Below, piece by piece: positions 29,145 to 53,887 of a stretch of 64,000 nt of DNA (positions within the stretch are counted from its first letter, which is position 1; each line of letters begins with the position of its first letter). The translations under genes and the position numbers were made by a program. The notes below the pieces were generated by a model. The model ran no database searches and had not been told where the DNA came from. It saw only the letters and a program-made list of their open reading frames with translations. This DNA comes from an archaeon CG10_big_fil_rev_8_21_14_0_10_43_11 (GTDB lineage Archaea > Nanobdellota > Nanobdellia > PEZQ01), in the NCBI GenBank assembly GCA_002763265.1, contig PEZQ01000007.1:63368-127367 (forward strand), read 5' to 3'.

Positions 29145-29229
29145 AACTTTTTAGTATGGAATACACTATTAAGGATTCTGATATCACAGATGAAAAAAAA
29201 TAGTGCGAGTTCAACAAGAAACGATAGCT

Positions 29230-30297: not shown

Positions 30298-30323
30298 GAA
30301 TTAAAAATAAAAAGTAATAGGTA

Positions 30324-31958
30324 CTACTCTACTTTATATACAGAAATTATTTGAGAAAACACCTTTGTTGTCGGGTCTTTGCCACTTTTTGTGTAAACTA
30401 AATCTAAATGTGAATCATTCGATTCGCTTGCTATATAGTCTGAAAGATAAGGCCACCGCTCATAATGACGTAAAGGATATAAGTGAAGAACAATCAGATA
30501 GTCAACTGAATGATTTTCTATCAATCGCTCAAATTCTATTCTTCTTCTTGGAACGCTTGTTATTTCTTGATTCGCATATACGGTAAGCGCAGTATACGCA
30601 TTAGAGAGGATACTATCAGACGAATTCGTATTTTGGAATATCCAGCTAGCAGCATCTGATAAAAACTCGTCAGATTGAACAGGAAAAAACAGAGATGAAA
30701 AACTAATTAAAACAACAAAGAGGAGGGTTACTGCTAAGAAAAATATACGAGGAGTAAAGACTTTTTTGAAGCTGTACACTACAAGAAAAGAAAATATTGG
30801 TAAAACAAACAGAAGATGTCTTGTTCCATGAGCCCAGTAGACTAAAATAAAAGCAAAGACAGAATAATAAAAAATAAGAATCGCTAATAATATTTGTTTT
30901 GGTATTTTACGCTTACCCAGAAATATAAGAAGTGGTAATCCTATCAACAGAGCAGTGTGACCAAATAGAGAGGCTAGCCTATTTTGAATTATTCCGAGAT
31001 TATCTGATAACGAACGCAAAAATTCAAAGGAGTCTGTTACTAAAAAACTTAAACTCGGCAAGGAAAAAACAAGTAAAACAAAACTCATAATTAAAAAAAG
31101 TTTTATTTTTTTGGAACGGGAAAAGAAGAATAAAGGGAAGAAAATAAAGGAAGATTGTTTAATCAAAAAAGAAAGGGTAAGAAAAATATATGAACTAAAC
31201 AAGAGCGATCTATTCCTTTCTTTGCTATATCTTAAGAATAAGAATAAGCTAAAAGATAATGTAATCGCTAAAAAAATATCAGAGTATAAACGTGGTGAGT
31301 TAAACCATACTGTAGGAAAAACAACTACCAGTAAAGAAGCAAACCACGCTAAACGTTTTGAAAAAAGTGAGCCGATAAGATAGGTAACTATTGGTAATAG
31401 AGATGATAAAAAAATCATCACATAACGCAAAAATAGAAGAGAAAAATGAAGTTCACCGAAAAAAGCAAGAACAAGAGAGAAGAATACACGGAAAATATTT
31501 GAAAGGGCTAAAAAAGTGGAAGGGTGTAAAATAGACCAGGCGTAAGCATATTCATCCTCGGTACCCATCATATGTAAGTTCCGCGTCAGTTGTAAAACTA
31601 AAAAAATAAAAGAAAGGCAGATTATAAAAAGTTCCGATTTCTCAGGATTCACCTGTTTATTGAAGTCTAAAAGGTGCAAGATTGTAAGAACAACAATAAA
31701 CAAGTTGCAAAATAGTAGAGCGCTAATACTAATAAAGTAACTTAAAAACTGTATAATTGAAAAAATACTCAACACTCCTAAAATACCAGCAATCAAAAGC
31801 TCAAGAAAAGAAAAGAGTTTATTAAATGGTTTAAACAAGGTTGCAAAACCAATACCAATAAAGGGTAGTGACAGAACTACAAGAAAGAGAGTATTCTCCT
31901 CTAGTAAGCCTATGTTTAATAAAACCAACCCTATAAGCGGATAAAGCCAAATACGCAT
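30324..31958 (-). CDS. GT-C-type membrane glycosyltransferase or glycan polymerase (ArnT/PMT-like)
   Basis: 544 aa; more than 10 N-terminal TM helices followed by a roughly 120-aa soluble C-terminal domain, the topology of GT39/GT83-like enzymes. Confidence 0.4.
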   Translation of the reverse strand: MRIWLYPLIGLVLLNIGLLEENTLFLVVLSLPFIGIGFATLFKPFNKLFSFLELLIAGILGVLSIFSIIQFLSYFISISALLFCNLFIVVLTILHLLDFNKQVNPEKSELFIICLSFIFLVLQLTRNLHMMGTEDEYAYAWSILHPSTFLALSNIFRVFFSLVLAFFGELHFSLLFLRYVMIFLSSLLPIVTYLIGSLFSKRLAWFASLLVVVFPTVWFNSPRLYSDIFLAITLSFSLFLFLRYSKERNRSLLFSSYIFLTLSFLIKQSSFIFFPLFFFSRSKKIKLFLIMSFVLLVFSLPSLSFLVTDSFEFLRSLSDNLGIIQNRLASLFGHTALLIGLPLLIFLGKRKIPKQILLAILIFYYSVFAFILVYWAHGTRHLLFVLPIFSFLVVYSFKKVFTPRIFFLAVTLLFVVLISFSSLFFPVQSDEFLSDAASWIFQNTNSSDSILSNAYTALTVYANQEITSVPRRRIEFERLIENHSVDYLIVLHLYPLRHYERWPYLSDYIASESNDSHLDLVYTKSGKDPTTKVFSQIISVYKVE

Positions 31959-32020
31959 AAGAAAAGATTACCTAACAGCAGAATTTAAAGTTATTATCAA
32001 TCAAAACTATAGAGAAATCA

Positions 32021-33076
32021 CTAACAAATCTGTTCATATAACTGAGAAACTCTCTGCAAAATAAGAGACCACGAATGATTCTTCATTACGAAATTCCTAC
32101 CGTTTCTTTTAAGCTTTAAACGTAACTCCTTGTTTATAATAATATCAAACATTGCAGCTTCTAATGAATCAATATCTCCAGAATCAATAATCATGGCAGA
32201 ATGCTCTTCCTCAAGAATTCTATGACCCCCAACAGCAGTAGTGATGACTGGAAGCCCAGCTGATAAAGCTTCTAACACTGTTAGTGAAAATCCTTCAAAG
32301 TATGAGGGGTTAAGAAGAACATCTGCTTTATTAAAGACAGTAGGCATGTTAGCATGCGAAATGCTGCCCAAATAAGTAACACCTTCAGTTTCTTTTGCAA
32401 GAGACAAGAGGGATCCCTTACCTGCAACTAAGAGTTGAACAGTTTTATATTTAGCATGCACGCGTTCAAATGCAGAAATTACATCATGAAATCCCTTTGC
32501 TTTTGTCAGACTTGACGCAAAAAGAAACGTGTTTGAAAAACGCTTTTGAACAGGGTAAAAAAGCTCAGTATCAACTGGATTCGGCAGATATGAAGAGGAA
32601 ACTTTGTTAATTTCGCTCTGGTAGCTTCTCTGTGAATTCCTATCACAAAACGCAACGTGATCTGGAGAGAAAAGTGACAACATGATTTTTTTATAGTGGT
32701 TAGAACCTGCGTTTGGCGTTTTAAGAGAATTGAGGGAATGAAAAAGAAAAGGAACTTTTGTTTTTAGAGAGACAACTCGAAGTGCTGGTATTGAAGACCA
32801 AGAAACGGAATGAATGATATCACATTCTTTGAAATATGCGACATGTTTCAAGATAGATCTGCTATTCTTAAAAAAACGAATCGGAAACGACGCAGTAGTG
32901 TTTGAAAGCGCATTCGTAAATGCAGCTTTGATTTTTTCTTCATTATTAGAAAAAGAAAAAATAGTGGTTTCAATACCCTTTTTTTGCAAAGAAACAGCTA
33001 AATCATGGATATGATTAGTTCCACCATAGTTATGGTCAGAAAGATTCATATCATCAATAATAAGACAAGCTTTCAT
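32021..33076 (-). CDS. Glycosyltransferase family 4
   Basis: YFEGFSLTVLEALSAGLPVITTAVGG motif. Confidence 0.7.
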   Translation of the reverse strand: MKACLIIDDMNLSDHNYGGTNHIHDLAVSLQKKGIETTIFSFSNNEEKIKAAFTNALSNTTASFPIRFFKNSRSILKHVAYFKECDIIHSVSWSSIPALRVVSLKTKVPFLFHSLNSLKTPNAGSNHYKKIMLSLFSPDHVAFCDRNSQRSYQSEINKVSSSYLPNPVDTELFYPVQKRFSNTFLFASSLTKAKGFHDVISAFERVHAKYKTVQLLVAGKGSLLSLAKETEGVTYLGSISHANMPTVFNKADVLLNPSYFEGFSLTVLEALSAGLPVITTAVGGHRILEEEHSAMIIDSGDIDSLEAAMFDIIINKELRLKLKRNGRNFVMKNHSWSLILQRVSQLYEQIC

Positions 33077-33720
33077 TATCTCACTCCTACCTTCTTTGCT
33101 ATCACTACAGTATAGGGTGCAATAAGTTTAAGAGGGAATCCTATTCCCTTTGTCCGGATAATTTCAAAACCACTATCTTGAAGTAATTTTTGTATCGTGG
33201 CAAAGGACCTACTGCATAACAGAAATTCATCACTGCTTTTTTTTCGATATCTCCACCACAAGAGGGGGTTACATGAATTTTTGAACTCAAAAATTAGAAT
33301 TCCTTCTTTCTTAAGAACGGCGTGCATTTGTTTAAGAGAGTTGACAACAACATCATCGGGAAGGTGGTGCATCACATCCACACAAAGAACAAAATCGAAG
33401 GAACTGTCCCTGAACGGTAAATTTTCCGCATCAGCATTAACGGGGCAGGGTGGAAACTGAACAGTCTTCTTAAAAAATTGCAACATATTAAATGAAAAAT
33501 CAACTGAAACAACAGATAAGCCGCGTTTAAGTAGTTGCGAAGAGTAAATACCAGGACCACAACCAAGGTCAAGTAACGTGCCTGAACGATTTTCTAAAAA
33601 ATCAAGCACGTAAGATAGTTCTCTTTTTTTAAGACGACCCCATGGTTTTGAGTCATCAAACATAGCCATAGGGGGGTCATTATCATAATGTTTTCTAATA
33701 TTATCTTTAGCGATTACCAT
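33076..33720 (-). CDS. Class I SAM-dependent methyltransferase
   Basis: LLDLGCGPGIYSSQL motif I; CVDVMHHL. Confidence 0.7.
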   Translation of the reverse strand: MVIAKDNIRKHYDNDPPMAMFDDSKPWGRLKKRELSYVLDFLENRSGTLLDLGCGPGIYSSQLLKRGLSVVSVDFSFNMLQFFKKTVQFPPCPVNADAENLPFRDSSFDFVLCVDVMHHLPDDVVVNSLKQMHAVLKKEGILIFEFKNSCNPLLWWRYRKKSSDEFLLCSRSFATIQKLLQDSGFEIIRTKGIGFPLKLIAPYTVVIAKKVGVR

Positions 33721-34327
33721 TTTTTATCACAGCGATATAAAAATGTCTAAATGGCTTAGAATAGTTCTCATACAACACTTTTGCCCCAGACTGCTCATAC
33801 AATTCATGCCATTCAGTTAATGTTCTATACTTTGTTCCCCCATCAAGACATTTCCACCATATATTCTTTATCAAACGCACAAACCCCTTGTTGGAATTAA
33901 TATTATCCAATATTAACGTGTAGCTTGAAACACGTAATGATTCCTCAATAGCATAAACTACTTTACCAATAGGTATATGATGCACAACCGATGACAAAAC
34001 GCTCAAATCAAAACTGTTATCACGGAAGGGAGCATTTTCTGCGCGACCTACGACAAATGACTTAGTTAGGTTAGATGCATGTTTAACCATTTCAAAACTT
34101 GGATCTATTCCATAAAATTTTTCAACATCCAATCCTAAATTCGTTTGTAAATCCCCCCGACCACAACCAAGATCAACAATAGAACGAACATTAAACCTTA
34201 AAACTATATCTTGAACGTCCCATGTCTTCTTAAAATAACGCTTAGCATATTTCCCTACTCTTGATAAAAGCACTATCTTCATTCGATAAAGTGAGGGTGT
34301 ATCAAATATCCTTTCTTGTAAACTCAT
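33707..34327 (-). CDS. Class I SAM-dependent methyltransferase
   Basis: IVDLGCGRGDL motif I; VLSSVVHHI. Confidence 0.7.
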   Translation of the reverse strand: MSLQERIFDTPSLYRMKIVLLSRVGKYAKRYFKKTWDVQDIVLRFNVRSIVDLGCGRGDLQTNLGLDVEKFYGIDPSFEMVKHASNLTKSFVVGRAENAPFRDNSFDLSVLSSVVHHIPIGKVVYAIEESLRVSSYTLILDNINSNKGFVRLIKNIWWKCLDGGTKYRTLTEWHELYEQSGAKVLYENYSKPFRHFYIAVIKNGNR

Positions 34328-35430
34328 TTTAATATCCCCTTATAAAAATTAATCGTAGCTAAACCAACATGTTTCCATGAATATTTTAAAGCTATAACCC
34401 CTTTTAATTTGTATCCTACCTGCGTAATATCTCTTTTATTGTTAATAAACTTCATAATAGCTCTACCCAACGCCTTACCCGAATAAGGTTCTATAACCAC
34501 TCCTAGTTTCTCCTTTAAAAATAATTCAGAAACACCCGCACCATACGTAACAATCACTGGTTTGCCCATAGCGCCGGCTTCAAGGGCAACCATACCAAAA
34601 CTTTCCTCAATCGACGGGGAGGGTAGCACGAACACATCACACTCTTCATACATCTTTAGAAGCTCTTTTTCTGGGAGAAAGTTCCGAAAAATTATTTTTC
34701 TCTCAAGACCAAGTTCAAGTACTTTTTTCTTAATCATTGCTTCTTGCGGACCATTGCCAACAATAGTAAAACTCACCTTTTCATTCTCGAGTAACTTTGC
34801 AGCGTCAACTAAATAGTCCAATCCCTTATAACGTCGTAAAGCACCCACAAACAAGACTTGTAACGGAGAATGAAGATTTCTCTTTTTGGCAACAAATTTT
34901 TTCGTGTCAACACCATGATAAATAACGTTTATTTTCTTCTTGTACCTTGAAAGAAATTTTGATGATTTAATTGCCTTACGCGAATTAACAATGATACCTG
35001 CAGCATGCTTCAAAATGAAAGTATAACAAAACTTATTATACAACGAAGAAGGCAATCCGAAAAACCAGTTCATGCGAATCTCTTTACCATGAGAATAGAC
35101 AACATAGGTCTTTCTCGCAATAATACATGCAAGAGCCCCAATATCTAAAAAAATAGGATGCGGATAATGGAGTTGCACGATATCCGCATCAGACTTCAAA
35201 ATTTCAAAGAAAATCCCTAAAGAAAAAGGCATACCAAGAATGGATAGTGATTTAACTCGCTTTATGGGAATTCCATCCATAACTTCAAAAGATTTTTTAG
35301 AGCCTAAAGTCGAGGTAAGCACTGAAACATCATGACCTTGTTTCATCATTTCTTTGCTCAAATAATACACGTAGTAAGGCACCCCACCTTTTCGTGGAAG
35401 AAACGTTGAAGGAACTTGCAATATCTTCAT
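34324..35430 (-). CDS. Glycosyltransferase family 4
   Basis: ESFGMVALEAGAMGKPVIVTYGAGVSE motif. Confidence 0.75.
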   Translation of the reverse strand: MKILQVPSTFLPRKGGVPYYVYYLSKEMMKQGHDVSVLTSTLGSKKSFEVMDGIPIKRVKSLSILGMPFSLGIFFEILKSDADIVQLHYPHPIFLDIGALACIIARKTYVVYSHGKEIRMNWFFGLPSSLYNKFCYTFILKHAAGIIVNSRKAIKSSKFLSRYKKKINVIYHGVDTKKFVAKKRNLHSPLQVLFVGALRRYKGLDYLVDAAKLLENEKVSFTIVGNGPQEAMIKKKVLELGLERKIIFRNFLPEKELLKMYEECDVFVLPSPSIEESFGMVALEAGAMGKPVIVTYGAGVSELFLKEKLGVVIEPYSGKALGRAIMKFINNKRDITQVGYKLKGVIALKYSWKHVGLATINFYKGILK

Positions 35431-36518
35431 CCAAACAATTCCTCCATTAGTGGTACGACACGCGCGTCAACAGGTATTCCCAAAACCCGCGAAGCCAGAC
35501 TATCCGAAACAGGACACACCCCTCTCTCAACAGGAAACCCACCAAACAAGGAAACTGCTTCAACCCCTTGCTTCTTTAGTCTGAGGATTGTATTCGCTTT
35601 ATAGTCTGTTGAAAACATAAGACGATTAAACGTGCTTTTTCCATTTTCTTTTTGCACAACAAAGCCGTGTTCACTTAGTTTTTTCCTCAAGAGAAGTGAC
35701 ACTTTTCGTCTATGCTCTAATTCAAGGGAAAAGTCACGCAATTTCACAATTCCCAGTGACGCGAGATACTGTGACGGATTCGCAGCTAATTGCGATGATA
35801 GATGGGCATATTGAGTTTTGAGACGTTTCTGTTTGACAAAATGTCCTGCATATGAATAGACTGTTTCATTAGTAAGGACAGACGCCACAAAATTTCGTAC
35901 GAAATTCGTTAGGCCTTGTGATGAAAAGGCAACACGCTGTTTTATGAATGAGTGCACCCCCTCATTATTTGTTGCAACAGATCCTAAACCACCAAGGGCA
36001 AGCGATTTTCCCAAACCAAAACTAAAAATAGTTGCATCAGCAAAAGAACCTACACACCTATTTTTGTATCGTGCACCAAATGCGGTTGCTGCATCATCAA
36101 TAAAAAAAAGTTCATTATCCTGACAAAAATCGTGCAACTCATCTAAGCGCGCAGGATTACCAAAAGGGTCAACTGAAATAAGAATCTTTGAACCAGTTTT
36201 TGCAAAATCCACATTTTCTGAGTCAAGCGCATAATCCTCACTACGCACGTCAGCAAGAACAGGTTTTGCCCCAGCATATTTCACAACGTCTGCAACAATG
36301 TCTGCAGTAAACGCGGGCATGACAACTTTTGACGGCGCGCCAGCGTACTTTAGTAGGTGAAACAATGCCTGTCTTCCAGATGCACAGAGCGCAACATATT
36401 TTACTCCCAAAAAGTCACTCAGTTCCTTCTCGAACTGGGATATGGATTGCTTGTTCATCCTAAAAAGTGCAGTGTATGCTTCGTTCAGACTTAATTGAGG
36501 TGTGTGAGCAGGAATCAA
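35427..36518 (-). CDS. DegT/DnrJ/EryC1/StrS-family PLP-dependent sugar aminotransferase
   Basis: 363 aa; fold-type I aminotransferase pattern with Asp (FFIDDAATAFGA) and Lys-containing loop (SFGLGKSLA). Confidence 0.7.
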   Translation of the reverse strand: MIPAHTPQLSLNEAYTALFRMNKQSISQFEKELSDFLGVKYVALCASGRQALFHLLKYAGAPSKVVMPAFTADIVADVVKYAGAKPVLADVRSEDYALDSENVDFAKTGSKILISVDPFGNPARLDELHDFCQDNELFFIDDAATAFGARYKNRCVGSFADATIFSFGLGKSLALGGLGSVATNNEGVHSFIKQRVAFSSQGLTNFVRNFVASVLTNETVYSYAGHFVKQKRLKTQYAHLSSQLAANPSQYLASLGIVKLRDFSLELEHRRKVSLLLRKKLSEHGFVVQKENGKSTFNRLMFSTDYKANTILRLKKQGVEAVSLFGGFPVERGVCPVSDSLASRVLGIPVDARVVPLMEELFG

Positions 36519-39454: not shown

Positions 39455-39721
39455 TTACACATCCTCTTCTTCCACTAGCATGGGCGCAGCCAATGCAGGG
39501 GGTGAGAACGTAAAATAAACCGTGTCAAAAAAATTGATTCGCGCCCACACGCGTTCGTGCGCGTAATAGATAACAAGCGTGAGAAACAATTCTAACGCGC
39601 TCACAGACAATGCAAGCGTCATTTTTCTGGTGAATATAAATACAAGAAAAAACGTGGTAAGCGTTGCAACAAAACGCCAACTAATACTTTTTGCAATGCT
39701 CTTAACATGAGAATCACTCAT
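39455..39721 (-). CDS. Small membrane protein (DUF2061-like)
   Basis: 88 aa; KSISWRF...YYAHERVW motif recalled as characteristic of DUF2061. Confidence 0.35.
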   Translation of the reverse strand: MSDSHVKSIAKSISWRFVATLTTFFLVFIFTRKMTLALSVSALELFLTLVIYYAHERVWARINFFDTVYFTFSPPALAAPMLVEEEDV

Positions 39722-39723: not shown

Positions 39724-40953
39724 CTATAACACCACGCCAGCACCAATTGGTCTGCCGTTGCGCAACAAGACTAAGCGACCAAGACTCTCCACATCCGAGA
39801 ACTTCTCAAACGCAAGATTTTCACGCGTGGTTAATAACACCATGCCTGCCTCGTTCTCGGCTAACAGATTATTGTCAAGAACAGCATCTTCACCAGCGGT
39901 ATTGACTTTTTGCACGATACGCAAGACGCGGGCTTGAACTAAACGCGTGCCAAGGCGAATATCAATATCTTCACCTTCACGAAGTTCATTGTCAGTAAAC
40001 ACAATAACCTGCGAATTAATAGTATTGCTCACTGCAGTGAGGCTTTGCGTGTATGACACCGCACCAATAAGCTCAGACGTTACAAGCGCGCCATTGAGTT
40101 TTAAACCAACACTCTGACCCTCTCTTGCACTCATAAGCGAACCCGTAAAATCGCGCACATCAACCACTGTTGCAAAAAGACCGTGAGGCGCGATTCCCAC
40201 TTTCTCACCCACACGCAATGAACCGCTCACAACCGTTCCAAGCGCGTAGTTTTCACCATCAATGTCTATCACATCCTGAATTGGCATGCGAAAATGCTGT
40301 TCTTTTGCTTCTTTTTGTGCAGCCTTCTTGTCAAGAATTTGCATAAACGTTTTTGGATACCATGCCAAGTTTGCAGAGGGTTCAATCACATTATCCCCCA
40401 CTTTCGCTGAAAGCGGGACAAAGGTCATGTGCTGTTGTTCAAAACCAACAGAAGTCAAATATTCCCCCACAACACGCTTCACTTCATTAAAACGTGTCTG
40501 AGAGTAATCAACAAGGTCCATTTTGTTTACGGCAACAATGACTTTTTTGATGCCAAGAAAATTAAGCAAGAACGAGTGTCGCTTGGTTTGTTCTTCAACC
40601 CCCTCTTTTGCAGAAACAAGGAGCACTGCTGCTTCTGCCTGGCTCGCGCCTGAAATCATGTTTTTGATAAACTCTTTATGACCCGGACAGTCAATAATTT
40701 GATACTCATAGTTTTCACTCAAAAAAGGGATTCGAATAATGTCAATAGTGATGCCCTGTTCGCGCTCTTCTAAAAAACTGTCAAGCACAAATGAATACTC
40801 AATATCTTTTCCAAGCGCTTTGCTTTGAGCAAGGACTTCATTGACTTTTTCTGGTTTAAGAGAATTCGTGTCAAAAAGCAAACGACCAATGAGCGTTGAC
40901 TTCCCATGGTCAATGTGGCCTACAAATACCAAACGAATAACCGGCTTTTCCAT
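39724..40953 (-). CDS. cysN: Sulfate adenylyltransferase subunit 1 (GTPase, CysN-like)
   Basis: EF-Tu-like GTPase motifs GHIDHGKST, DCPGH, NKMD; 409 aa; directly downstream of cysD with a 6-nt gap. No APS-kinase domain fused. Confidence 0.8.
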   Translation of the reverse strand: MEKPVIRLVFVGHIDHGKSTLIGRLLFDTNSLKPEKVNEVLAQSKALGKDIEYSFVLDSFLEEREQGITIDIIRIPFLSENYEYQIIDCPGHKEFIKNMISGASQAEAAVLLVSAKEGVEEQTKRHSFLLNFLGIKKVIVAVNKMDLVDYSQTRFNEVKRVVGEYLTSVGFEQQHMTFVPLSAKVGDNVIEPSANLAWYPKTFMQILDKKAAQKEAKEQHFRMPIQDVIDIDGENYALGTVVSGSLRVGEKVGIAPHGLFATVVDVRDFTGSLMSAREGQSVGLKLNGALVTSELIGAVSYTQSLTAVSNTINSQVIVFTDNELREGEDIDIRLGTRLVQARVLRIVQKVNTAGEDAVLDNNLLAENEAGMVLLTTRENLAFEKFSDVESLGRLVLLRNGRPIGAGVVL

Positions 40954-40959
40954 TACGTA

Positions 40960-41754
40960 TCACATATATCCAAGACTGCGAAGCTTTTGCATCGTGTACG
41001 TGTCCTCTTTATCCTGCGCACGACCTGACCGCTCAGAAAGGTTGCTTGTCTTAAGCTCGTCAACAATCTCTTGTATACTGCTTGCTGTTGAATCAACAGG
41101 GAACGTGCAGGGTTGGCAGCCAAGACTTCGGTAGCGCTTGCCATTTTGTGCAAAATAAAGAGGGTTTGTTGGGATACCCTCCTGCAACACGTACTCCCAC
41201 ACATTTAACTCAGTCCAATCCAAGATAGGATGCACGCGCGTGTGCGTACCTTCATCAGTTGATTTCACAAACAAATCCCACATCTCAGCAGGCTGGTTTT
41301 GATAATCCCACTTAAACTCCTTATTGCGCGGTGAAAACACGCGCTCTTTTCCGCGAATGCCATGCTCATCACGTCTAATAGCAAGAATAAGCGCATCAAA
41401 CCCGTACTCTGCCATGCAATCTTTAAGCGCTTGCGTTTTAAGCGCGTTACAGCATTCAAACTTGCGCACGTTTGACATGCCATCAGCAAGTGCTTTTTTG
41501 TTTTGCGCAACAATCAAATCAAGATTCCACTCATCAACAAGCCGGTCACGAAACGCGTACATCTCCTTAAACTTGTAACTCGTATCAATATGAATAACTG
41601 GAAACGGGACTTTACCAAAGAATGCTTTTTTTGCAAGCCACACGTTTGCCGTAGAATCTTTTCCCACGCTCCACATCATAGCAGGGTTTTTGAATTGCTT
41701 TTTTGCTTCCCGAATAATATAAATGCTCTTATTTTCTAATTCCTTCAAATCCAT
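40960..41754 (-). CDS. cysD: Sulfate adenylyltransferase subunit 2 (CysD)
   Basis: PAPS-reductase-like fold with SVGKDS P-loop; collinear with E. coli CysD including the C-terminal ...LGY tail. Confidence 0.85.
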   Translation of the reverse strand: MDLKELENKSIYIIREAKKQFKNPAMMWSVGKDSTANVWLAKKAFFGKVPFPVIHIDTSYKFKEMYAFRDRLVDEWNLDLIVAQNKKALADGMSNVRKFECCNALKTQALKDCMAEYGFDALILAIRRDEHGIRGKERVFSPRNKEFKWDYQNQPAEMWDLFVKSTDEGTHTRVHPILDWTELNVWEYVLQEGIPTNPLYFAQNGKRYRSLGCQPCTFPVDSTASSIQEIVDELKTSNLSERSGRAQDKEDTYTMQKLRSLGYM

Positions 41755-41769
41755 GACATAACCACCAGT

Positions 41770-42018
41770 TTAATCTAAATAACCAAGAGAACGCAAACGC
41801 GCTTTCACTTCCTCCTCATCATCTTTTGAGGGGGTAGATGTTTGCTTGCCTTTGGGCAATACATCACTGTCTTTTCGTTCAAGCTCTGAAACAACTTGGC
41901 GCAACACATACGTTACGTAATCCGAAACACTTGTAAACCCGCTTCCCTCCAACCGTTTTTCAATGTTCTCATAGAGCTTTCGAGGAATCGAAACCGTTGT
42001 ATGTTTTCTCCCCAACAT
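41770..42018 (-). CDS. Ribbon-helix-helix (CopG-like) protein with CysD-like C-terminal tail
   Basis: 82 aa; N-terminal beta-strand and helices TTVSIPRKLYENIEKRL...SVSDYVTYVLRQ typical of RHH; C-terminus ...EEEVKARLRSLGYLD resembles the CysD tail ...MQKLRSLGYM. Confidence 0.5.
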   Translation of the reverse strand: MLGRKHTTVSIPRKLYENIEKRLEGSGFTSVSDYVTYVLRQVVSELERKDSDVLPKGKQTSTPSKDDEEEVKARLRSLGYLD

Positions 42019-42118
42019 AACACTGTGTTTTAATTAAACTGCATTAATAAGCATTACGCCTCTGAGCTGGAGTACTGACGAAATACTTTTATTATACTGC
42101 CCGTTAAAGTAGTGCGTT

Positions 42119-43399
42119 ATGCGTGGGAGAACCGTTATTTTTGGCATTGATGGCGTACCCTATGAACTCATGCAAGATTTATCAGATAGAGGAGTCATGC
42201 CTCACTTCAAAAAATTACGGGAACAAGGCACCTTCAAAAAATTGCGCTCAAGCATTCCTGACATTTCTTCTATTGCATGGAGTTCAATGATTACGGGGAA
42301 AAATGCAGGCGAGCACAACGTGTACGGTTTTATTGACTTAATTGAAGGAACCTACACCATGCGTTTTCCCAATTTTAAAAGCGTCATGCAACCTGCATTT
42401 TGGCAAGAAGATGATAAAAAGTACGTGATTTTGAACGTTCCCTCAACATATCCTGCAAAAGAAATCAATGGCCTGCATGTATCTGGATTTGTTGCAATTG
42501 ATATGGATAAAGCAGTCTATCCCGCAGACTATTTGCAAACACTCAACAATATAGACTACCGAATTGATGTTGACTCAATGCTTGGGCACGAAGCGCAGGA
42601 ATTATTTATCAAAGATTTGTTCTACACGCTTGAAAAACGAAAAGCACTACTCGATAAAACGTGGACAGAATTTGAGTGGGATACGTTCATGTATGTGGTC
42701 ACCGGCAGTGACCGGCTCGGCCATTTCTTATGGGAAGCATACCACAACGCAGAACACAAGCACCACCAAGATTTTTTAAATTTTTTCAAAAAAGTAGACG
42801 AACAAATTGGTGACGTGGTCTCGCGCATGCATGAAGATGATAAACTCCTCATGCTCTCAGACCATGGTATGGAACAGGTTAAAACAAACGTGTTCGTGAA
42901 TGCATTCCTGCGAGAAAAAGGATTTTTGAACGCGGATTATGACCTGCGCGCAGGCTACAATAATATCAAAGAAGGAACCAAGGCATTCTGTCTTGACCCA
43001 GGACGAATTTATCTGAATCGAAAAGGAAAATATCCAAAAGGTGAAGTACTTCTTGAAGAAGAAGCAGAAATTATTACTGAATTAATCAAAGCGTTTGAAT
43101 CGCTTGAATGGAACGCTCAAAAGGTCGTTGCAAAAATCTACAAACGAGATGACATCTATCATGGTCCCTACACGAAAAACGCGCCAGACCTTGTGATTGA
43201 GGGAGCGTCAGGTTTTAACATGCGAGGAAACATCATCAAAAAAGAAATCTTTGCAGACGAAATTTTCACGGGCAAACACACCCTCGAAAACGCGTTCATC
43301 TATGTTAACACAAAACAACCAAACATCATCCCAGAAAATCCCACCATTGAAGACGTGGTGGACATTATGAAAAAACTCCAACACGTGAATGAACAATGA
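42119..43399 (+). CDS. Alkaline-phosphatase-superfamily protein (type I phosphodiesterase / nucleotide pyrophosphatase family)
   Basis: VIFGIDGVPYEL...IPDISSIAWSSMITGKNAGEHNVYGF matches metal-site motifs of the phosphodiesterase/AlkP family. Confidence 0.65.
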   Translation: MRGRTVIFGIDGVPYELMQDLSDRGVMPHFKKLREQGTFKKLRSSIPDISSIAWSSMITGKNAGEHNVYGFIDLIEGTYTMRFPNFKSVMQPAFWQEDDKKYVILNVPSTYPAKEINGLHVSGFVAIDMDKAVYPADYLQTLNNIDYRIDVDSMLGHEAQELFIKDLFYTLEKRKALLDKTWTEFEWDTFMYVVTGSDRLGHFLWEAYHNAEHKHHQDFLNFFKKVDEQIGDVVSRMHEDDKLLMLSDHGMEQVKTNVFVNAFLREKGFLNADYDLRAGYNNIKEGTKAFCLDPGRIYLNRKGKYPKGEVLLEEEAEIITELIKAFESLEWNAQKVVAKIYKRDDIYHGPYTKNAPDLVIEGASGFNMRGNIIKKEIFADEIFTGKHTLENAFIYVNTKQPNIIPENPTIEDVVDIMKKLQHVNEQ

Positions 43400-44916
43400 A
43401 CTGCAAAAACGGAAACAAAACCTGCTGGAACTGTCCTGCCGCCGTATTCAAAGGAAATGTTGACTTTCGCGCGTGCGGACAATCAAAAGAAGACATCAAA
43501 TCAAAACAAGGCGACAAAGGCCAAATTATGATTGAATGCTCACGACGACCTGAACTTGGCTACTTTGAACCAAACTTGACATTTGAACAATGCAACCAAT
43601 GGGAAGAAAGCGAATACGGCTACAAACTAAAAGACATGCGCGTCATGATTCTTGGCATGGATGGCTACCTTGGCTGGAGTCTTGCCCTCAAACTCGCACG
43701 ACTCGGCTACAAAGTATCAGGGTTTGACAATTACTGGAGACGACGTTGCGTTGCAGAAAAAAATTCGCACTCAATCACGCCAATCCTCCCCATGCAAGAG
43801 CGCTTGCAAGCAGCAAAAGAAGTATTTGATGTTGACATCGCCTTTGCAGAAATTGATATTCGCGAGCGAGACAAACTCAAAAACTTTCTTAAAGAACACA
43901 AACCAGAAGTAATTATCCATTATGCAGAATGCCCAAGCGCACCCTACAGCATGGTAAACGCTGAGCACGCGATAAACGTACAAGACAATAACGTACTTGG
44001 CACACTCGGGCTACTCTTCTTAATTAAAGAACTTGTTCCAGAATCAACACTCATAAAACTTGGAACTATGGGCGAGTACGGAGCCCCCCTCACGGGCAGG
44101 CCAATTTTTGAGGGGCTCTTTCCTGCAGATGCTACAATTGAGTGGAAAGGGCAAACGTGGAGTCTTGGCGGGGAGATGACACCACGAGACCCCGTAAGCT
44201 TTTATCACGTTTCAAAAGTGCAAGACACGTTCAACGTATATGAAGCATGCAAGTACTGGTGGTTGCGCTCATATGATATCATGCAGGGCGTGATTTATGG
44301 CGTGCACACAAACGAAATCAGTAAAGATAAACGATTACTTACCCGTTTTGATGCTGATGAATGGTTTGGCACGGTAATAAACCGTTTTGTTGCTCAAGCA
44401 ATTCTTGGTATTCCCCTCACTATATATGGAAGCGGCGAACAAATACGCGGATTCATCGCGTTAGAAGACGCCATGCAGTGCATGGTGCGCCTCATCAATT
44501 CACCGCCAGAACCCGGACAATATGATGTAGTCAATCAAGTGTCTGGACTCTACAAAGTACGAGAACTTGCAGATACCGTAGCAAAGGTTGGCAAAGAATT
44601 TGGCTATACTGTTCGTATACAACGAATCGAAAATCCGCGAGTGGAAGCTGACAATCATCCCCTTGAAGTAGTGTCAACAAAACTTCCAAACACGTTTGGA
44701 TTCAAGACGCAAACTACGCTTGAGCAGGAAGTGCGACACATGTTTGAAATTCTCACACAACCCGAATCTCTTGAACGCCTTGAAGCAATGAAACATGCAA
44801 TCATCCCTGAAACACGCTGGGATGGGACTAAGAAAAAATCAGAAACGCTTGAACTCTACAATAACACAGTCAACACTAAAACAAGCAGATTCGAACCAAA
44901 GCTTCATGAAACATGA
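43396..44916 (+). CDS. UDP-sulfoquinovose synthase (SQD1/SqdB/Agl3-like) with about 80-aa Cys-containing N-terminal extension
   Basis: From internal Met at 43636: MRVMILGMDGYLGW...HYAECPSAPYSMVNAEHAINVQDNNVLGTLGLLFLIKE...KLGTMGEYGAP, near-collinear with plant SQD1 (...SAPYSM...HNNV.GTLNVLFAIKE...KLGTMGEYGTP). Upstream 80 codons in-frame contain CWNC...C...C. Confidence 0.8.
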   Translation: MNCKNGNKTCWNCPAAVFKGNVDFRACGQSKEDIKSKQGDKGQIMIECSRRPELGYFEPNLTFEQCNQWEESEYGYKLKDMRVMILGMDGYLGWSLALKLARLGYKVSGFDNYWRRRCVAEKNSHSITPILPMQERLQAAKEVFDVDIAFAEIDIRERDKLKNFLKEHKPEVIIHYAECPSAPYSMVNAEHAINVQDNNVLGTLGLLFLIKELVPESTLIKLGTMGEYGAPLTGRPIFEGLFPADATIEWKGQTWSLGGEMTPRDPVSFYHVSKVQDTFNVYEACKYWWLRSYDIMQGVIYGVHTNEISKDKRLLTRFDADEWFGTVINRFVAQAILGIPLTIYGSGEQIRGFIALEDAMQCMVRLINSPPEPGQYDVVNQVSGLYKVRELADTVAKVGKEFGYTVRIQRIENPRVEADNHPLEVVSTKLPNTFGFKTQTTLEQEVRHMFEILTQPESLERLEAMKHAIIPETRWDGTKKKSETLELYNNTVNTKTSRFEPKLHET

Positions 44917-45227
44917 CAAAAGAAATCAGCGATAAAACATTTAAACAAGAGGTTCTAGAGAAAACGCTTCCTGTTATTGTCAAGTTTTGGGCAAGCTGGT
45001 GTCCGCCATGCAAGGTAATGGAGCCCATGATAGAATCACTTGAAAAACAAATACGCGGACAAGCCATTATTGTGAACCTTAATGCTGACAAAAATCCTTT
45101 CACAACTGCCCACTACAACGTAAAAGGGTTGCCAACACTTATCTTTTTCAAAAACGGTGAAGAAAAAGCACGACTCATTGGCGCACAAGGACCACAAACT
45201 ATACTAAACACACTTGAAACAATATAA
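44913..45227 (+). CDS. Thioredoxin (CPPC active site)
   Basis: 104 aa; VKFWASWCPPCK active-site motif; thioredoxin-fold length; 4-nt overlap with the upstream synthase gene. Confidence 0.8.
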   Translation: MTKEISDKTFKQEVLEKTLPVIVKFWASWCPPCKVMEPMIESLEKQIRGQAIIVNLNADKNPFTTAHYNVKGLPTLIFFKNGEEKARLIGAQGPQTILNTLETI

Positions 45228-50318: not shown

Positions 50319-50654
50319 TTTAGTTTAAATGTGTCTATTTTAGTTTATATATGTTTTGATAGACAACCACTCAAAAAAAGAGAATTTTAAAAACTATGAG
50401 CAGGTGATAAAACACTATAAAAATCTGGACTGAAATTGGTTACGTTGCATACTACACTCAAAATCTCAGAAAGGACAAACAATTATTCAAACAAAAAAAA
50501 TTATAGACTCACAAATAAAAGCAAGCAGGGCGCTATGTAACAAACGCGTTACGCATAAAAATTATAAACCACAAGCACGAAACTATTTGCACTCAATCAA
50601 TCTCGTATAACCACCCCACCATTTAACAAAAAAAAAGCAAAAACTATTTATAAT

Positions 50655-50670
50655 GTTCGTATATACGAAC
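50655..50670. promoter_or_regulatory. Perfect 16-bp palindrome GTTCGTATATACGAAC, candidate DtxR-family operator
   Basis: Seen directly; ends 6 nt upstream of the likely DtxR start (ATG 50677). Confidence 0.45.
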
Positions 50671-50676
50671 AAAGTA

Positions 50677-51084
50677 ATGACTACTGAGACGCGTGAAGAC
50701 TACATTCGCGCCATCTGGAAACTCAAAGAAAAAAACGGCGCGGTCAAATCAAAAGACGTGGCAGAAATGACGGGTCTTGCAAAATCAACGATTTCTGAGC
50801 GCCTGCGCGGCCTCAAAGATGAGGGGCTTGTCACTTTCAAACCCTACACCGACATAACACTCACCAAAAAAGGAGAAGCGCTTGCAGCAGAGCTCACGTA
50901 CAAGCACAGGCTCATTGAAGTTTTTTTACACAAAACACTGGGCATGCCCATCAACAAGATTCATGACGAAGCAAACCGGCTTGAACACGCGTTTTCTGAC
51001 GAGTCAATCACGCATCTTGCGCGCTTTCTTGGCAACCCAAAAAAAGACCCGCACGGCAGCCCCCTACGAGGCAAAAAACCATGA
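50677..51084 (+). CDS. DtxR-family metal-dependent transcriptional repressor (MntR/SirR/TroR-like)
   Basis: TETREDYIRAIWKL...VKSKDVAEMTGLAKSTISERLRGLKDEGLV (wHTH) plus metal-binding helical domain. ORF track starts at 50653; internal Met 50677 preferred. Confidence 0.8.
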   Translation: MTTETREDYIRAIWKLKEKNGAVKSKDVAEMTGLAKSTISERLRGLKDEGLVTFKPYTDITLTKKGEALAAELTYKHRLIEVFLHKTLGMPINKIHDEANRLEHAFSDESITHLARFLGNPKKDPHGSPLRGKKP

Positions 51085-51992
51085 ACAAGCTCATCATCGC
51101 TCTGTTTGGGCTCCTGCTTTTGGGCGGGTGCACCGCGCAAACTACGACTGATGACGCGCGCATACGCGTCGTGACCACGATTGGCATGATTACTGACATC
51201 GTCCAAAACGTGGGCGGCGACTACGTACGCGTGACGGGTCTTATGGGTCCTGGCGTTGACCCGCACCTCTACAAAACAAGTGAAGGAGACGTGCGCGCCA
51301 TGAGCAGCACAGACATCATCTTCTACAACGGACTGCATCTGGAATCAAAAATGGGCGACGTGATTGAAGGCATGGAACAGCTCACGCACGTTGTTGCCGT
51401 TACTGACTACCTTAACAAAAGTGAACTGCTTGATTTTCCCGCGTTTCCCGGACAATACGACCCGCACGTCTGGTTTAACGTGAAATACTGGATGAACGCA
51501 ACACAAAAAGTCCGCGATGAACTCATCAGATACGACCCTGCACACGCGCAGTACTACAAAGACAACGCACAAACCTATCAGGCAGGTCTTGAAGCGCTTG
51601 ACGCGTACGTGACTGCCCAGATTCAGCGTGTACCCGAACAACAGCGCGTACTCATCACAGCCCATGACGCGTTTAGTTATTTTGGGCGCGAATACGGCCT
51701 TGACGTGCGCGGACTCCAAGGCATCAGCACTGAAGCTCAGGCAGGCACAGGCGACGTGCAAGAACTTGTTGACTTCATTGTTTTGCAAAAAATAAAAGCC
51801 ATCTTCATTGAATCATCTGTTCCTGAACGAAACATAAAAGCAGTGGAAGAAGCAGTTGAGGCAAAAGGCTGGAACGTGTCAATTGGCGGCGAACTCTTCT
51901 CTGACGCCATGGGTGACGCGGGCACGTTTGAAGGCACGTACATAGGCATGGTCACGCACAACGTGGATACCATCGTGGGCGCACTCTCGTGA
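51081..51992 (+). CDS. Metal ABC transporter substrate-binding lipoprotein (TroA/ZnuA/MntC family)
   Basis: Lipoprotein signal MNKLIIALFGLLLLGGC; cluster-9 SBP length and His/Asp-rich metal-site regions. Confidence 0.8.
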   Translation: MNKLIIALFGLLLLGGCTAQTTTDDARIRVVTTIGMITDIVQNVGGDYVRVTGLMGPGVDPHLYKTSEGDVRAMSSTDIIFYNGLHLESKMGDVIEGMEQLTHVVAVTDYLNKSELLDFPAFPGQYDPHVWFNVKYWMNATQKVRDELIRYDPAHAQYYKDNAQTYQAGLEALDAYVTAQIQRVPEQQRVLITAHDAFSYFGREYGLDVRGLQGISTEAQAGTGDVQELVDFIVLQKIKAIFIESSVPERNIKAVEEAVEAKGWNVSIGGELFSDAMGDAGTFEGTYIGMVTHNVDTIVGALS

Positions 51993-52735
51993 TTAGTATG
52001 AAAAAAGAATTAGCACTCAGCGTAGACGACTTAACCGTTGCGTACAACGAAAAACCAGTACTTTGGGACATTGACGCGCACGTGCCTCAAGGCGTGCTGC
52101 TTGCCATTGTCGGACCAAACGGGGCGGGAAAAACAACGTTTATCAAAAGCGTGCTTGGACTTATTAAACCCGCAGCGGGCACGGTCACGTTTTTTGCCAA
52201 ACCCTACCAGGCAAAACGAAAAAAAATAGCGTACGTGCCTCAGCGAACCAGCGTTGACTGGGATTTTCCCGCAACCGTGCTTGACGTGGTGCTTATGGGA
52301 ACGTACGGCCAGCTTGGCTGGATTCGCCGTGCTGGAAAAAAACAAAAACAACACGCATATCAAAGCCTTGAGCGCGTTGGCATGAGTAAATTTGCAGACC
52401 GCCACATCAGCCAACTCTCAGGCGGCCAACAACAACGCGTCTTTCTTGCGCGCGCACTTGTTCAAGACGCTGACGTGTATCTCATGGACGAACCCTTTGC
52501 AGGCGTTGACACAACCACTGAACAAGCAATTCTCGCACTCTTGCAAAACCTGCGAAAAAAAGGAAAAACCGTGATTGTTGTGCACCACGACTTGCAGACC
52601 GTGAAAAAATATTTCGACTGGGTCATGCTTCTTAACGTGCGAAAAATCGGTTTTGGACCAGTTGAAAGCGTGATGACAAACGAGAACTTGAAAAAAACGT
52701 ACGGGGGCACGGCTGCATTTCTAGAAAACGAGTGA
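51989..52735 (+). CDS. Metal ABC transporter ATP-binding protein
   Basis: Walker A GPNGAGKTT, signature LSGGQQQRV, Walker B DVYLMDEP. Confidence 0.85.
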   Translation: MISMKKELALSVDDLTVAYNEKPVLWDIDAHVPQGVLLAIVGPNGAGKTTFIKSVLGLIKPAAGTVTFFAKPYQAKRKKIAYVPQRTSVDWDFPATVLDVVLMGTYGQLGWIRRAGKKQKQHAYQSLERVGMSKFADRHISQLSGGQQQRVFLARALVQDADVYLMDEPFAGVDTTTEQAILALLQNLRKKGKTVIVVHHDLQTVKKYFDWVMLLNVRKIGFGPVESVMTNENLKKTYGGTAAFLENE

Positions 52736-52744
52736 AACCACACC

Positions 52745-53887
52745 ATGCTTGAACTCTTGTACAACCTTTTTTTTGATTACACACTTCGAAATGTGGCGCT
52801 TGGCTCTGCCACTATTGGGGTGCTCTCAGGCGTGCTTGGTAGCTTTGCTGTGCTTCGAAAAAAAAGCCTGCTTGGAGACGCAATCTCGCACGCAGCCCTT
52901 CCTGGCATTGCACTCGCATTTCTTTTTACCCTTAGCAAAAATTCGCTTGTACTCCTTTTTGGCGCCATGCTCGCCGGTCTTGCAGGCGCAAGCATCGTGC
53001 TTATCGTGCACAAAAACAGCAAGATAAGTGAAGACGCCGCGCTTGGCATTGTCCTCTCCTCATTTTTTGGGCTGGGTATTTTTCTTCTCACCATTATACA
53101 ACGCATTGCAAGCGCAAAAAAAGCAGGTCTTGAAACCTTCCTGTTTGGCAACGCATCAACCATGCTTGCAAGCGACGTGTACACCCTGCTCTTTTTTGCA
53201 GGCCTCGCGCTCGCGCTGACCGCGCTTTTTTGGAAAGAGTTCAAGCTCGTTTCCTTTGATTACGCGTACGCTAAAACCCTGGGGTTTCACACTCTTGGCA
53301 TTGAAGCGCTCATTACTGCGCTTATCGTGCTTGCTATTGTGATTGGACTCCAAACTGTTGGCGTCGTGCTTATGAGCGCGTTTATTATTGCGCCTGCAGT
53401 TGCAGCACGCCAATGGACTAAAACCCTCTTTGGCATGGTCACACTCTCAGCACTGTTTGGCGCCGTCTCAGGCGTGAGTGGCGCCATGATAAGCAGCGCT
53501 CAGCGAAACGTGCCAACAGGACCCGTTATCGTAATTGTCATGAGTTGCATTGTCTTTTTTTCCCTGCTCTTTTCTCCAACACGCGGCATTGTAAGCGAAA
53601 AAATCAAAGACGCAAAAAAACGAAAAAACCTTGACGTCAAAGGCGTGCTCATAGACGTGTTCTTACTCTCACACAATCACGCGAAACGAACCCACCCTCA
53701 CCACGTGAGCGCGATTCAGGCAGTGTCGCACGCGTCAGCAAAAAACAGTCTTGACGTGCTTGAACAACTCGGGCTTGTAACACAAGACGCGCACGAGTAT
53801 TGGCGCCTTACTCCTGCTGGCGTGCTGGAAGCAGAAAAAATACTGCAAAAAAAAGGAGGTGGTCCCTCACATGTTAGTGCAAGCTGA
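52745..53887 (+). CDS. Metal ABC transporter permease (ABC-3 family) with C-terminal winged-helix-like extension
   Basis: About 270-aa polytopic permease core followed by about 100-aa soluble tail (...LDVLEQLGLVTQDAHEYWRLTPAGVLEA...). Confidence 0.75.
   Translation: MLELLYNLFFDYTLRNVALGSATIGVLSGVLGSFAVLRKKSLLGDAISHAALPGIALAFLFTLSKNSLVLLFGAMLAGLAGASIVLIVHKNSKISEDAALGIVLSSFFGLGIFLLTIIQRIASAKKAGLETFLFGNASTMLASDVYTLLFFAGLALALTALFWKEFKLVSFDYAYAKTLGFHTLGIEALITALIVLAIVIGLQTVGVVLMSAFIIAPAVAARQWTKTLFGMVTLSALFGAVSGVSGAMISSAQRNVPTGPVIVIVMSCIVFFSLLFSPTRGIVSEKIKDAKKRKNLDVKGVLIDVFLLSHNHAKRTHPHHVSAIQAVSHASAKNSLDVLEQLGLVTQDAHEYWRLTPAGVLEAEKILQKKGGGPSHVSAS

Follow-up and report, generated by a model that had tools for sequence, protein, structure and literature searches.

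This study concerns a 64,000-nucleotide stretch of DNA from the archaeon CG10_big_fil_rev_8_21_14_0_10_43_11 (contig PEZQ01000007.1), referred to here as the window, and within it a glycan locus in which genes for sulfate activation lie back to back with genes for a predicted sulfosugar synthase and its partners. The synthase has 100% identity to the corresponding protein of this metagenome-assembled genome. According to the open reading frame (ORF) listing and its translation, two divergent gene sets flank a 100-bp AT-rich spacer (Table 1). One set encodes a small ribbon-helix-helix (RHH) protein, CysD, a CysN-type GTPase, a DUF2061 membrane protein and a small family 2 glycosyltransferase (GT2); the other encodes an AlkP-superfamily enzyme (AlkP), a homologue of the UDP-sulfoquinovose synthase SQD1, a thioredoxin, and a GalE-like short-chain dehydrogenase/reductase (SDR). 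As read from the sequence, ATGA start/stop overlaps join AlkP to the synthase (43396-43399) and the synthase to the thioredoxin (44913-44916), and the thioredoxin is translationally coupled to the synthase. An earlier reading of the sequence (the original prediction) had proposed a module of five of these genes, namely, those for CysD, CysN, AlkP, the SQD1 homologue and thioredoxin. Their identities and strands are as claimed and the overlaps are confirmed, but the bounds assigned to the module, 39724-45227, are too narrow: the genes for the RHH protein, the DUF2061 protein, GT2 and the GalE-like SDR belong to it as well. The most informative feature of the locus is the succession AlkP - synthase - thioredoxin, which is a near-invariant cassette.

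The synthase of the window is a long form of the SQD1 family, distinguished by a cysteine-rich N-terminal domain (N-domain) of 80 residues. One genome per GTDB species was scanned, and neighbourhoods with at most 10 kb of flank on each side were analyzed for the best 80 loci. Anaerobic archaea and bacteria from 224 GTDB species have the long form, which constitutes one clade with 65-76% identity. About 60 of the 80 loci are archaeal (Iainarchaeia, Woesearchaeota, Aenigmatarchaeota, several Asgard lineages, Bathyarchaeia, Thermoplasmatota, Hadarchaeota, Theionarchaea, and Altiarchaeales), and about 20 are bacterial (Saccharibacteria/Patescibacteria, Armatimonadota, Planctomycetota, Omnitrophota, Chloroflexota, Spirochaetes, and others). 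The median identity between archaeal and bacterial synthases is 67.5%, equal to that within domains, and is therefore indicative of strong constraint combined with horizontal spread. The thioredoxin gene lies immediately downstream of the synthase gene, on the same strand, in 74 of the 75 loci with room for it, the sole exception being an ORF-calling artefact. In 63 of 68 loci, the AlkP gene immediately precedes that of the synthase, and 60 of 66 loci have both partners in place. Start/stop overlaps within the cassette are also found in locus L002. Because this arrangement recurs in dozens of unrelated genomes, it is far from chance. In a small control, the three closest short-form relatives had neither a thioredoxin nor an AlkP neighbour. 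We found no description of the cassette in the open-access full-text literature. A TrmB-like regulator of about 275 aa adjoins the cassette in 10 loci (L004, L006, L008, L009, L015, L024, L033, L043, L045, and L054), mostly divergently upstream of AlkP; the window has no such gene.

The match between the synthase and Arabidopsis SQD1 (1i24) has E=6e-78 and 266 bits, compared to 6.7e-4 and 21.5 bits for the best UDP-glucose 4-epimerase (GalE). A Foldseek search with the AlphaFold2 model, which is confident over the SDR body, also placed SQD1 at the top (E=7e-35, TMt 0.83), with GalE and other epimerases at about 1e-16. Thus, both in sequence and in fold, the homologue groups with SQD1 and not with ordinary epimerases, as had been claimed. 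The protein matches PF01370, and the NAD-binding motif G87-x-x-G90-x-x-G93 is kept in long and short forms alike. For a comparison of individual residues, 60 long-form and 91 short-form family members were aligned with SQD1. In SQD1 numbering, H95, T145, E148, S180, Y182, H183, K186, and Q209 are invariant in the 60 long forms, whereas M146 is Met in 44 and Leu in 16 of them, and Y149 is Tyr in 57 and Phe in 3. The synthase residues T224, Y270, H271, and K274, which correspond to SQD1 Thr145, Tyr182, His183, and Lys186, are accordingly invariant in 60 of 60 long forms. The roles of these residues, several of which are essential in Agl3, are taken from the Agl3/SQD1 literature (PMC4388408). With respect to the positions that mutagenesis of Agl3 marked as essential or important, the equivalents of H95, E147, and S180 are invariant in long forms, that of M145 is Met or Leu (44/16), that of Y148 is Tyr or Phe (57/3), and that of R101 is Pro. 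This last replacement was considered as a sign of altered chemistry, given that Arg101 is essential in Agl3, and was dropped, because Pro is present in all long forms but also in 75 of the 91 short forms. Judging from the sequence, UDP-sulfoquinovose synthase is the likely activity of the long form.

The N-domain was missed earlier because the start of the synthase gene had been placed at 43636, that is, 240 nt too far downstream. The true start is at 43396, and the first 80 residues are conserved in all close homologues. In the alignments, five cysteines (C10, C13, C27, C48, and C66) are invariant, as are N5, W11, D23, F24, G28, Q29, and R50, while N12, E47, and R51 are nearly invariant. An N-domain profile retrieved chance-level matches only from the PDB (LynD, E=0.7), and in Pfam the one match with E<=10 was at chance level (E=0.32). 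The AlphaFold2 confidence (predicted local distance difference test, pLDDT) is 38-56 over the N-domain, so that the model is uninformative on metal or cluster binding and on the position of the domain relative to the active site. The five-Cys domain is confined to the long-form clade. When 1.84 billion representatives at 50% identity were searched exhaustively by HMMER, the synthase retrieved essentially one full-length long-form representative (796 bits), and the next matches, at 319 bits or less, were proteins of about 380-410 aa that align only from residue 81. By these searches, the long form appears as a tight, sharply bounded clade. Its specific traits extend into the SDR body, with R235, W289, Y293, D377, and an insertion at approximately residues 236-262, and include a conserved C-terminal extension. 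P0121 and many SQD1-family proteins of 700-850 aa from the same HMMER search match the synthase in two stretches, with the break at residue 222/223 (KLG|TMGEYG, next to the catalytic Thr) in several of them and near residues 257-273 in others, as would be expected for intein insertions in an active-site motif.

The two partners of the synthase differ in how closely they can be assigned. The thioredoxin matches the models of its family (PF00085, E=1.7e-27; TIGR01068, 99.6 versus a cut-off of 96.8) with the active-site sequence WCPPC, and WCxxC is present in 63 of 63 clustered cassette thioredoxins that were checked. AlkP, which is cytosolic, matches PF01663 with 123 bits; it has no relatives of solved structure by sequence (PDB, E<0.01) and no NCBIfam matches beyond two chance-level ones to phosphopentomutase (E about 0.005). 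The AlphaFold2 model of AlkP has a pLDDT of 95.4, and the closest folds are phosphonoacetate hydrolase (PhnA) and NPP/ENPP1 (TM-score about 0.6-0.67, 12-15% identity). The bimetal ligands and the nucleophile position (D11, S50, D198, H202, D248, H249, and H387) are invariant in 60 homologues. On the evidence of the model, AlkP is predicted to belong to the NPP/PhnA clade, the fold search giving a clade-level placement only, without a characterised subfamily or substrate. NPP/ENPP1 and PhnA act on nucleotide diesters and anhydrides.

On the other side of the spacer, CysD exceeds the cut-off of NCBIfam PRK05253 (341 bits versus 195) and falls short of that of TIGR02039 (263 bits versus 396.6). 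The closest solved structure is 1zun_A, the CysD of the CysDN complex (E=9e-68), and membership in this family suggests that the protein is the catalytic small subunit of ATP sulfurylase, which converts sulfate and ATP to adenosine 5'-phosphosulfate (APS). The CysN-type GTPase consists of three EF-Tu-type domains. It scores 300.6 bits against TIGR02034 (cut-off 336.1) and 300-318 bits against CysN models overall, all under their cut-offs; it matches 1zun_B with E=1e-58, and the archaeal elongation factor aEF-1alpha scores slightly higher. We assigned this GTPase to CysN because it adjoins CysD, a pairing that recurs in eight related loci. At 409 aa and without any match to the APS-kinase domain PF01583, it agrees with the description of CysN in the original prediction, and a six-frame search detected no APS-kinase homologue in the whole window. 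The RHH protein has no Pfam matches, although a homologue is weakly similar to the N-terminal RHH domain of NikR (E=3.5e-4). Its homologues are encoded directly upstream of CysD or of the Sat-type ATP sulfurylase in at least 10 related loci, sometimes in duplicate (L005, L013, and L043), and the protein is probably a dedicated regulator of the sulfate-activation genes. The DUF2061 protein is associated with sulfate activation: its gene separates or adjoins those for CysD and CysN in L005, L008, and L013, and L022 has a fusion of DUF2061 with APS kinase.

The original prediction had linked sulfate activation to the synthase from this one locus, and the link proved to be real. About 14 of the 80 loci encode, no more than 10 kb from the cassette, an ATP sulfurylase of one of two non-homologous types, CysDN or Sat. 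CysD and CysN, always paired, are found in eight loci (L004, L005, L006, L008, L012, L013, L042, and L043). In seven of these, the genes follow the cassette without a change of strand, as AlkP - synthase - thioredoxin - (SDR) - small RHH protein - CysD - (DUF2061/HIT/TauE) - CysN, and in L042, CysD and CysN precede the cassette. The window carries the same set, inverted into a divergent pair. Sat is found in six further loci (L017, L022, L033, L054, L057, and L065). Some of the loci with sulfate activation add an APS kinase, a DHH phosphoesterase, a Na/sulfate-symporter-like permease, a TauE permease or a small sulfotransferase-like protein, and the lengths of a 647-aa protein in L012 and of 622-627-aa proteins in L017 and L022 are those expected of CysN-APS kinase and Sat-APS kinase fusions, respectively. 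The recruitment of two unrelated ATP sulfurylases to one and the same cassette, in distant lineages, argues strongly on comparative grounds that activated sulfate is consumed by the cassette. A HIT-family protein is encoded between CysD and CysN in L005 and L013, and a TauE permease in L043; a second, mini-AlkP (257-262 aa, PF01663) is encoded beside CysD/CysN in L004, L006, and L015. The HIT protein, mini-AlkP, TauE, and the DUF2061-APS kinase fusion suggest that there is a set of accessory proteins, so far unexplored, for the handling of APS.

The proteins of the cassette and those of sulfate activation also share a C-terminal tail. The RHH protein has an acidic stretch followed by the C-terminal sequence RLRSLGYLD, which is nearly the same as the end of CysD, KLRSLGYM. 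In general form, the motif is L[KR]xLGY[LIM](D)-COOH behind an acidic stretch; CysD is its native bearer, and 38 of 1289 neighbourhood genes end in it, compared to about 0.8 expected by our rough composition-based estimate. It is found on the cassette thioredoxin in four bacterial loci (L007, L017, L022, and L032), on the synthase in L074, on APS kinases in L033, L057, and L065, on the DUF2061 protein in L013, on AlkP in L048, and on a sulfatase-family protein in L042. The tail may be a shared docking peptide. As it is shared by cassette and sulfate-activation proteins, it provides independent, indirect support (a hint) for their physical association.

Between the two ends of the predicted pathway, one step is unaccounted for. 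The reduction of APS or 3'-phosphoadenosine 5'-phosphosulfate (PAPS) to sulfite normally requires a thioredoxin-dependent reductase of the CysH/APS reductase (APR) type or an AprAB-like enzyme. The genes at 18-63 kb and two ORFs upstream of them were scanned with Pfam, and the entire window was searched in six frames; these comparisons revealed none of CysH, APS kinase, Sat, sulfotransferase, DHH, HIT, sulfatase-family protein, TauE or SulP/sulfate permease. Across the 80 loci, a hidden Markov model based on CysD detected CysD itself and two CysD-like proteins only, and no further PAPS_reduct-family protein. Those two, at L015 6368-7213 (-) and L031 2536-3375 (+), are PAPS_reduct-family proteins of about 280 aa, intermediate in character between CysD and PAPS reductase, that score under all NCBIfam cut-offs. 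They have a CysD-type tail and no CysN partner, and the L031 gene overlaps the start of AlkP by 4 nt. The route from sulfate through sulfite to UDP-sulfoquinovose, as originally put forward, is therefore represented by its activation genes and its synthase, and the enzyme in the middle was found neither in the window nor in the 80 loci. The window would thus make APS and use a sulfite equivalent, and it has the reductant but not the enzyme of the missing step.

We tentatively favor, at a little under even confidence, a sulfate-fed sulfosugar module that serves the adjacent glycan pathway and carries out the reduction within the cassette. Four steps can be envisaged: (i) CysD and CysN would turn sulfate and ATP into APS; (ii) the AlkP - long-form SQD1 - thioredoxin cassette would make UDP-6-sulfoquinovose from a UDP-hexose, most likely UDP-glucose; (iii) sulfite would be formed inside the cassette, instead of being drawn from a free pool supplied by a CysH-type reductase; and (iv) UDP-sulfoquinovose, possibly after 4-epimerisation by the GalE-like SDR, would be passed by GT2 to polyprenyl phosphate and enter the glycan built by the neighbouring transferases. 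Because the catalytic residues are fully conserved, the chemistry of the second step is expected to be that of SQD1, i.e., NAD+-dependent 4-oxidation, 5,6-dehydration, addition of sulfite at C6, and re-reduction. In the third step, the sulfo group of APS (PAPS in some lineages) would form a thiosulfonate with a cysteine thiol of either the N-domain or thioredoxin. Within the cassette, only the NPP-like AlkP has a plausible site for a nucleotide, and it is the candidate enzyme for nucleotide binding and cleavage. Thioredoxin would then reduce the thiosulfonate, as in the chemistry of CysH and plant APR, and sulfite would be released at or near the SQD1 active site and used at once. Internal reduction of APS to sulfite is a hypothesis from comparative genomics only, and our confidence in it lies between doubtful and nearly even; the stronger proposition, that AlkP, the five-Cys N-domain, and thioredoxin make up an unrecognised type of (P)APS-to-sulfite reductase, non-homologous to CysH/APR and AprAB and physically fused with or coupled to its consumer, seems to us on the whole unlikely.

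Several observations weigh against such a scheme. The synthase scores 425.7 bits against NCBIfam NF041015 (UDPsulfquin_syn), under the equivalog cut-off of 575, which is consistent with a separate subfamily. AlkP is encoded just downstream of the synthase in two more loci and is absent near it in L023, L064, and L070, so that it may be accessory. Moreover, an NPP-type nucleophile would be expected to attack the phosphorus of APS, giving AMP-enzyme and sulfate and destroying APS; of all parts of the proposal, the role of AlkP is the weakest. Binding of zinc or an Fe-S cluster, in a structural or regulatory capacity, could be all that the N-domain does, and a CysH or AprAB-like reductase could be encoded outside the window. 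This last point leads to the ordinary pathway, in which the synthase would use free sulfite from a remote CysH/APR or another source, thioredoxin would serve that reductase or general redox upkeep, and AlkP would do an unrelated job, e.g., removing a nucleotide by-product or excess UDP-sugar by hydrolysis. SQD1 and Agl3 accept free sulfite in vitro (PMC4388408), the catalytic residues of the synthase are canonical, about 80% of the loci have no sulfate-activation gene within 10 kb, and only 64 kb of the present genome are visible. Conversely, a remote reductase leaves unexplained why thioredoxin stands next to the synthase in 74 of 75 loci in two domains of life, why the five-Cys domain is invariant, and why the loci that bring ATP sulfurylase, including those of reduced genomes of the candidate phyla radiation (CPR) and DPANN, never bring CysH; we regard this pathway as rather unlikely. 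Thioredoxin-controlled enzymes are common, and the five invariant cysteines lie in a separate domain dissimilar to any catalytic family; thus, the N-domain might instead be a regulatory or structural metal or disulfide module, with thioredoxin toggling the synthase or keeping it reduced and no sulfur being transferred. Such a redox switch is improbable in our view, given that regulatory thioredoxin targets rarely own a private, translationally coupled thioredoxin gene, that AlkP and the recurrent recruitment of sulfate-activation genes would have no part in it, and that the invariant N5, D23, Q29, and R50, together with the nearly invariant N12, E47, and R51, suggest ligand binding and not a plain switch.

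The sulfate-activation genes and the cassette might also serve two independent functions, CysDN (Sat/CysC elsewhere) feeding O-sulfation of glycans and the SQD1 cassette being a separate glycan-modification set. Sulfated archaeal glycans are known. A small sulfotransferase-like protein is encoded in six loci, three of them with PAPS supply and two also with a DHH phosphoesterase, which counts against reduction inside the cassette, and L002 has a 644-aa Sulfotransfer_1 protein 5 kb away. Glycan sulfation, offered as an alternative by the original prediction, finds no support within the window, where neither a sulfotransferase nor PAPS supply is present; seven of the eight CysDN loci likewise have no APS kinase or sulfotransferase, the exception being L012 with its presumed CysN-APS kinase fusion. 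Furthermore, APS would be an unusual sulfotransferase donor, and in those CysDN loci CysD and CysN come directly after the cassette, on the same strand, behind the shared small RHH gene. We consider independent functions quite improbable. Finally, a Cys-rich domain combined with thioredoxin is typical equipment of a persulfide relay, and the long-form substitutions R235, W289, Y293, and D377, along with the insertion in the SDR body, would fit a different sulfur sugar: the long form would add a nucleophile other than sulfite, e.g., a protein persulfide or thiol, to the 5,6-ene, giving a 6-thio sugar after reduction by thioredoxin. Retention of His183 and all other SQD1-specific residues argues against this chemistry, as do the recurrent neighbours, which are sulfate-activating enzymes and not cysteine desulfurases or rhodaneses, and we give it very little credence.

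The products of the cassette could be used by two of the remaining genes. The GalE-like SDR scores under the cut-offs of the galE and dTDP-glucose dehydratase models; it has the sequence SSAAPLG and no dehydratase Asp-Glu pair, and it is encoded directly after thioredoxin in about 11 related loci. It could be a 4-epimerase acting on UDP-Glc/Gal or on UDP-sulfoquinovose, in the latter case giving UDP-sulfofucose. According to a paper of 2025 in mBio (PMC12421959), no biosynthetic pathway of sulfofucose is known. GT2 resembles AglJ and polyprenyl-phosphate sugar synthases, its AglJ and PpgS-like NCBIfam matches being under cut-off. A GT2 of the same family, of about 205-218 aa, is encoded directly after thioredoxin in about 15 loci and nearby in 34, and GT2 is a candidate for loading the sulfosugar onto a lipid carrier. 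That GT2 and the glycan pathway use the product is plausible from the gene neighbourhood. Beyond GT2, the minus-strand glycan genes continue to 26905 in the window scans and include DUF2304, polysaccharide deacetylase, FemAB-like GNAT, DegT aminotransferase, several GT4 glycosyltransferases, methyltransferases, and a PMT_2-like membrane protein.

Table 1. Genes and other features of the module, in order of position in the window.
Feature	Position	Strand	Basis
Small GT2 glycosyltransferase, 232 aa	38703-39401	-	PF00535
DUF2061 small membrane protein	39455-39721	-	PF09834
CysN-type GTPase, 409 aa	39724-40953	-	GTP_EFTU + domain 2 + C-terminal domain
CysD, 264 aa	40960-41754	-	PF01507, PRK05253
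RHH protein, 82 aa	41770-42018	-	homologue weakly NikR-like
Divergent intergenic region, 100 bp, AT-rich	42019-42118	.	TATA-like stretches on both sides, read from sequence
AlkP-superfamily enzyme (NPP/PhnA type, predicted), 426 aa	42119-43399	+	PF01663
Cys-rich N-terminal domain of synthase, residues 1-80	43396-43635	+	alignments
Long-form SQD1-family synthase homologue, 506 aa: N-domain, SDR body, conserved C-terminal extension	43396-44916	+	
Thioredoxin, 104 aa, WCPPC	44913-45227	+	PF00085, TIGR01068
GalE-like SDR, 315 aa	45230-46177	+	PF01370

The spacer between the two gene sets would be the place of their promoters, a role that we infer only from its sequence; scans for promoter and terminator consensus sequences around the module performed no better than on shuffled sequence. 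A few observations concern the rest of the window. The G+C content is 0.32-0.38 over the glycan cluster (16000-36000), compared to 0.41-0.49 elsewhere, which is typical of horizontally exchanged surface-glycan loci, and several large ORFs of this region (15144-16778, 16977-17789, and 18256-19770) have no Pfam matches. A Zn/Mn uptake operon, unrelated to the sulfosugar module, is located at 50653-54992 (+); behind a DtxR-type metal-dependent repressor, it encodes a ZnuA-type binding protein, an ABC ATPase, and two ABC-3 permeases. An archaeal LonB-type protease is split in two ORFs at 57649-60081 (-), with an Intein_splicing match at the end of the upstream ORF, and the lonB gene may thus contain an intein or be interrupted. 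A very large ORF (1732 aa) is located at 3127-8325 (-), with a 541-aa ORF alongside.

The sulfur source of SQD1-type enzymes in vivo has been in doubt ever since the SQD1 structure was determined, and the Agl3 paper still regards the in vivo mechanism as open (PMC4388408). A clade that has its own thioredoxin and a Cys-rich domain and, in reduced genomes, ATP sulfurylase but never CysH makes the question of the sulfur source of SQD1 directly testable. Formation of C-sulfonates in sulfite-sensitive strict anaerobes is poorly understood, and a channelled route would explain it. If reduction inside the cassette were true, toxic sulfite would never be free, a portable sulfate-to-sulfonate cassette would have spread among anaerobic archaea and bacteria, including CPR and DPANN with minimal genomes, and the part formed by AlkP, the N-domain, and thioredoxin would be a new kind of (P)APS reductase. 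From the cassette, one would also predict sulfoquinovose, or sulfofucose as its 4-epimer, to be commonly present in the surface glycans of Asgard archaea, Bathyarchaeia, Thermoplasmatota, DPANN, and CPR, which bears on sulfosugar cycling in anoxic sediments. It should be noted that 65-70% identity across two domains of life is, for a glycan gene, an unusually strong sign of constraint and horizontal transfer.

Compared to known systems, the sulfate-activation genes of the window are the most conventional part. CysD is a clear orthologue of the CysD of the CysDN ATP sulfurylases of Pseudomonas syringae (1ZUN) and Escherichia coli, and the adjoining CysN has the three EF-Tu-like domains; in contrast to those systems, the window CysD is shorter (264 aa) and the pair is preceded by an RHH protein with a CysD-like tail, and CysN is without the optional APS-kinase domain and no closer to bacterial CysN than to archaeal EF-1alpha. 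AlkP resembles Xac NPP, ENPP1, and PhnA, the best structural matches of its model, in keeping the two-metal ligands and the Ser/Thr nucleophile position, and differs from them in being only 12-15% identical (TM-score about 0.6), cytosolic, and coupled to a synthase. The activity that the module lacks is the one that CysH and plant APR provide, namely, the thioredoxin-dependent two-electron conversion of activated sulfate to sulfite via a cysteine thiosulfonate. Plant APR, with its fused thioredoxin-like domain, is a precedent for a private thioredoxin-type module at this step, and the five invariant cysteines of the N-domain echo the four cluster ligands and one nucleophile of Fe-S-type APS reductases, although this is a resemblance only. 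Unlike CysH/APR, the module has no PAPS_reduct domain besides CysD, its N-domain is without detectable homology, and AlkP as a nucleotide-binding partner would be unprecedented.

The closest comparison is with SQD1 of Arabidopsis, SqdB of cyanobacteria, and Agl3 of Sulfolobus acidocaldarius, with which the long form shares the SDR fold and the catalytic set (35-43% identity to SQD1); like Agl3, the synthase gene of the window sits in a glycan locus. As cited in PMC4388408, spinach SQD1 occurs in a complex with ferredoxin-glutamate synthase, its in vivo sulfur donor being unresolved, and to the extent of that citation the complex is a precedent for SQD1 working in vivo with a partner protein. 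There is no GOGAT here; instead, the synthase has thioredoxin and an enzyme of the AlkP type as partners, along with its fused Cys-rich domain. Unlike SQD1, SqdB, and Agl3, the long form has the 80-residue five-Cys N-domain, the conserved C-terminal extension, and the residues R235, W289, Y293, and D377. The synthase thus belongs to the known SQD1/SqdB/Agl3 family, and what is new is a distinct subfamily with an undescribed fused domain and two obligate partners.

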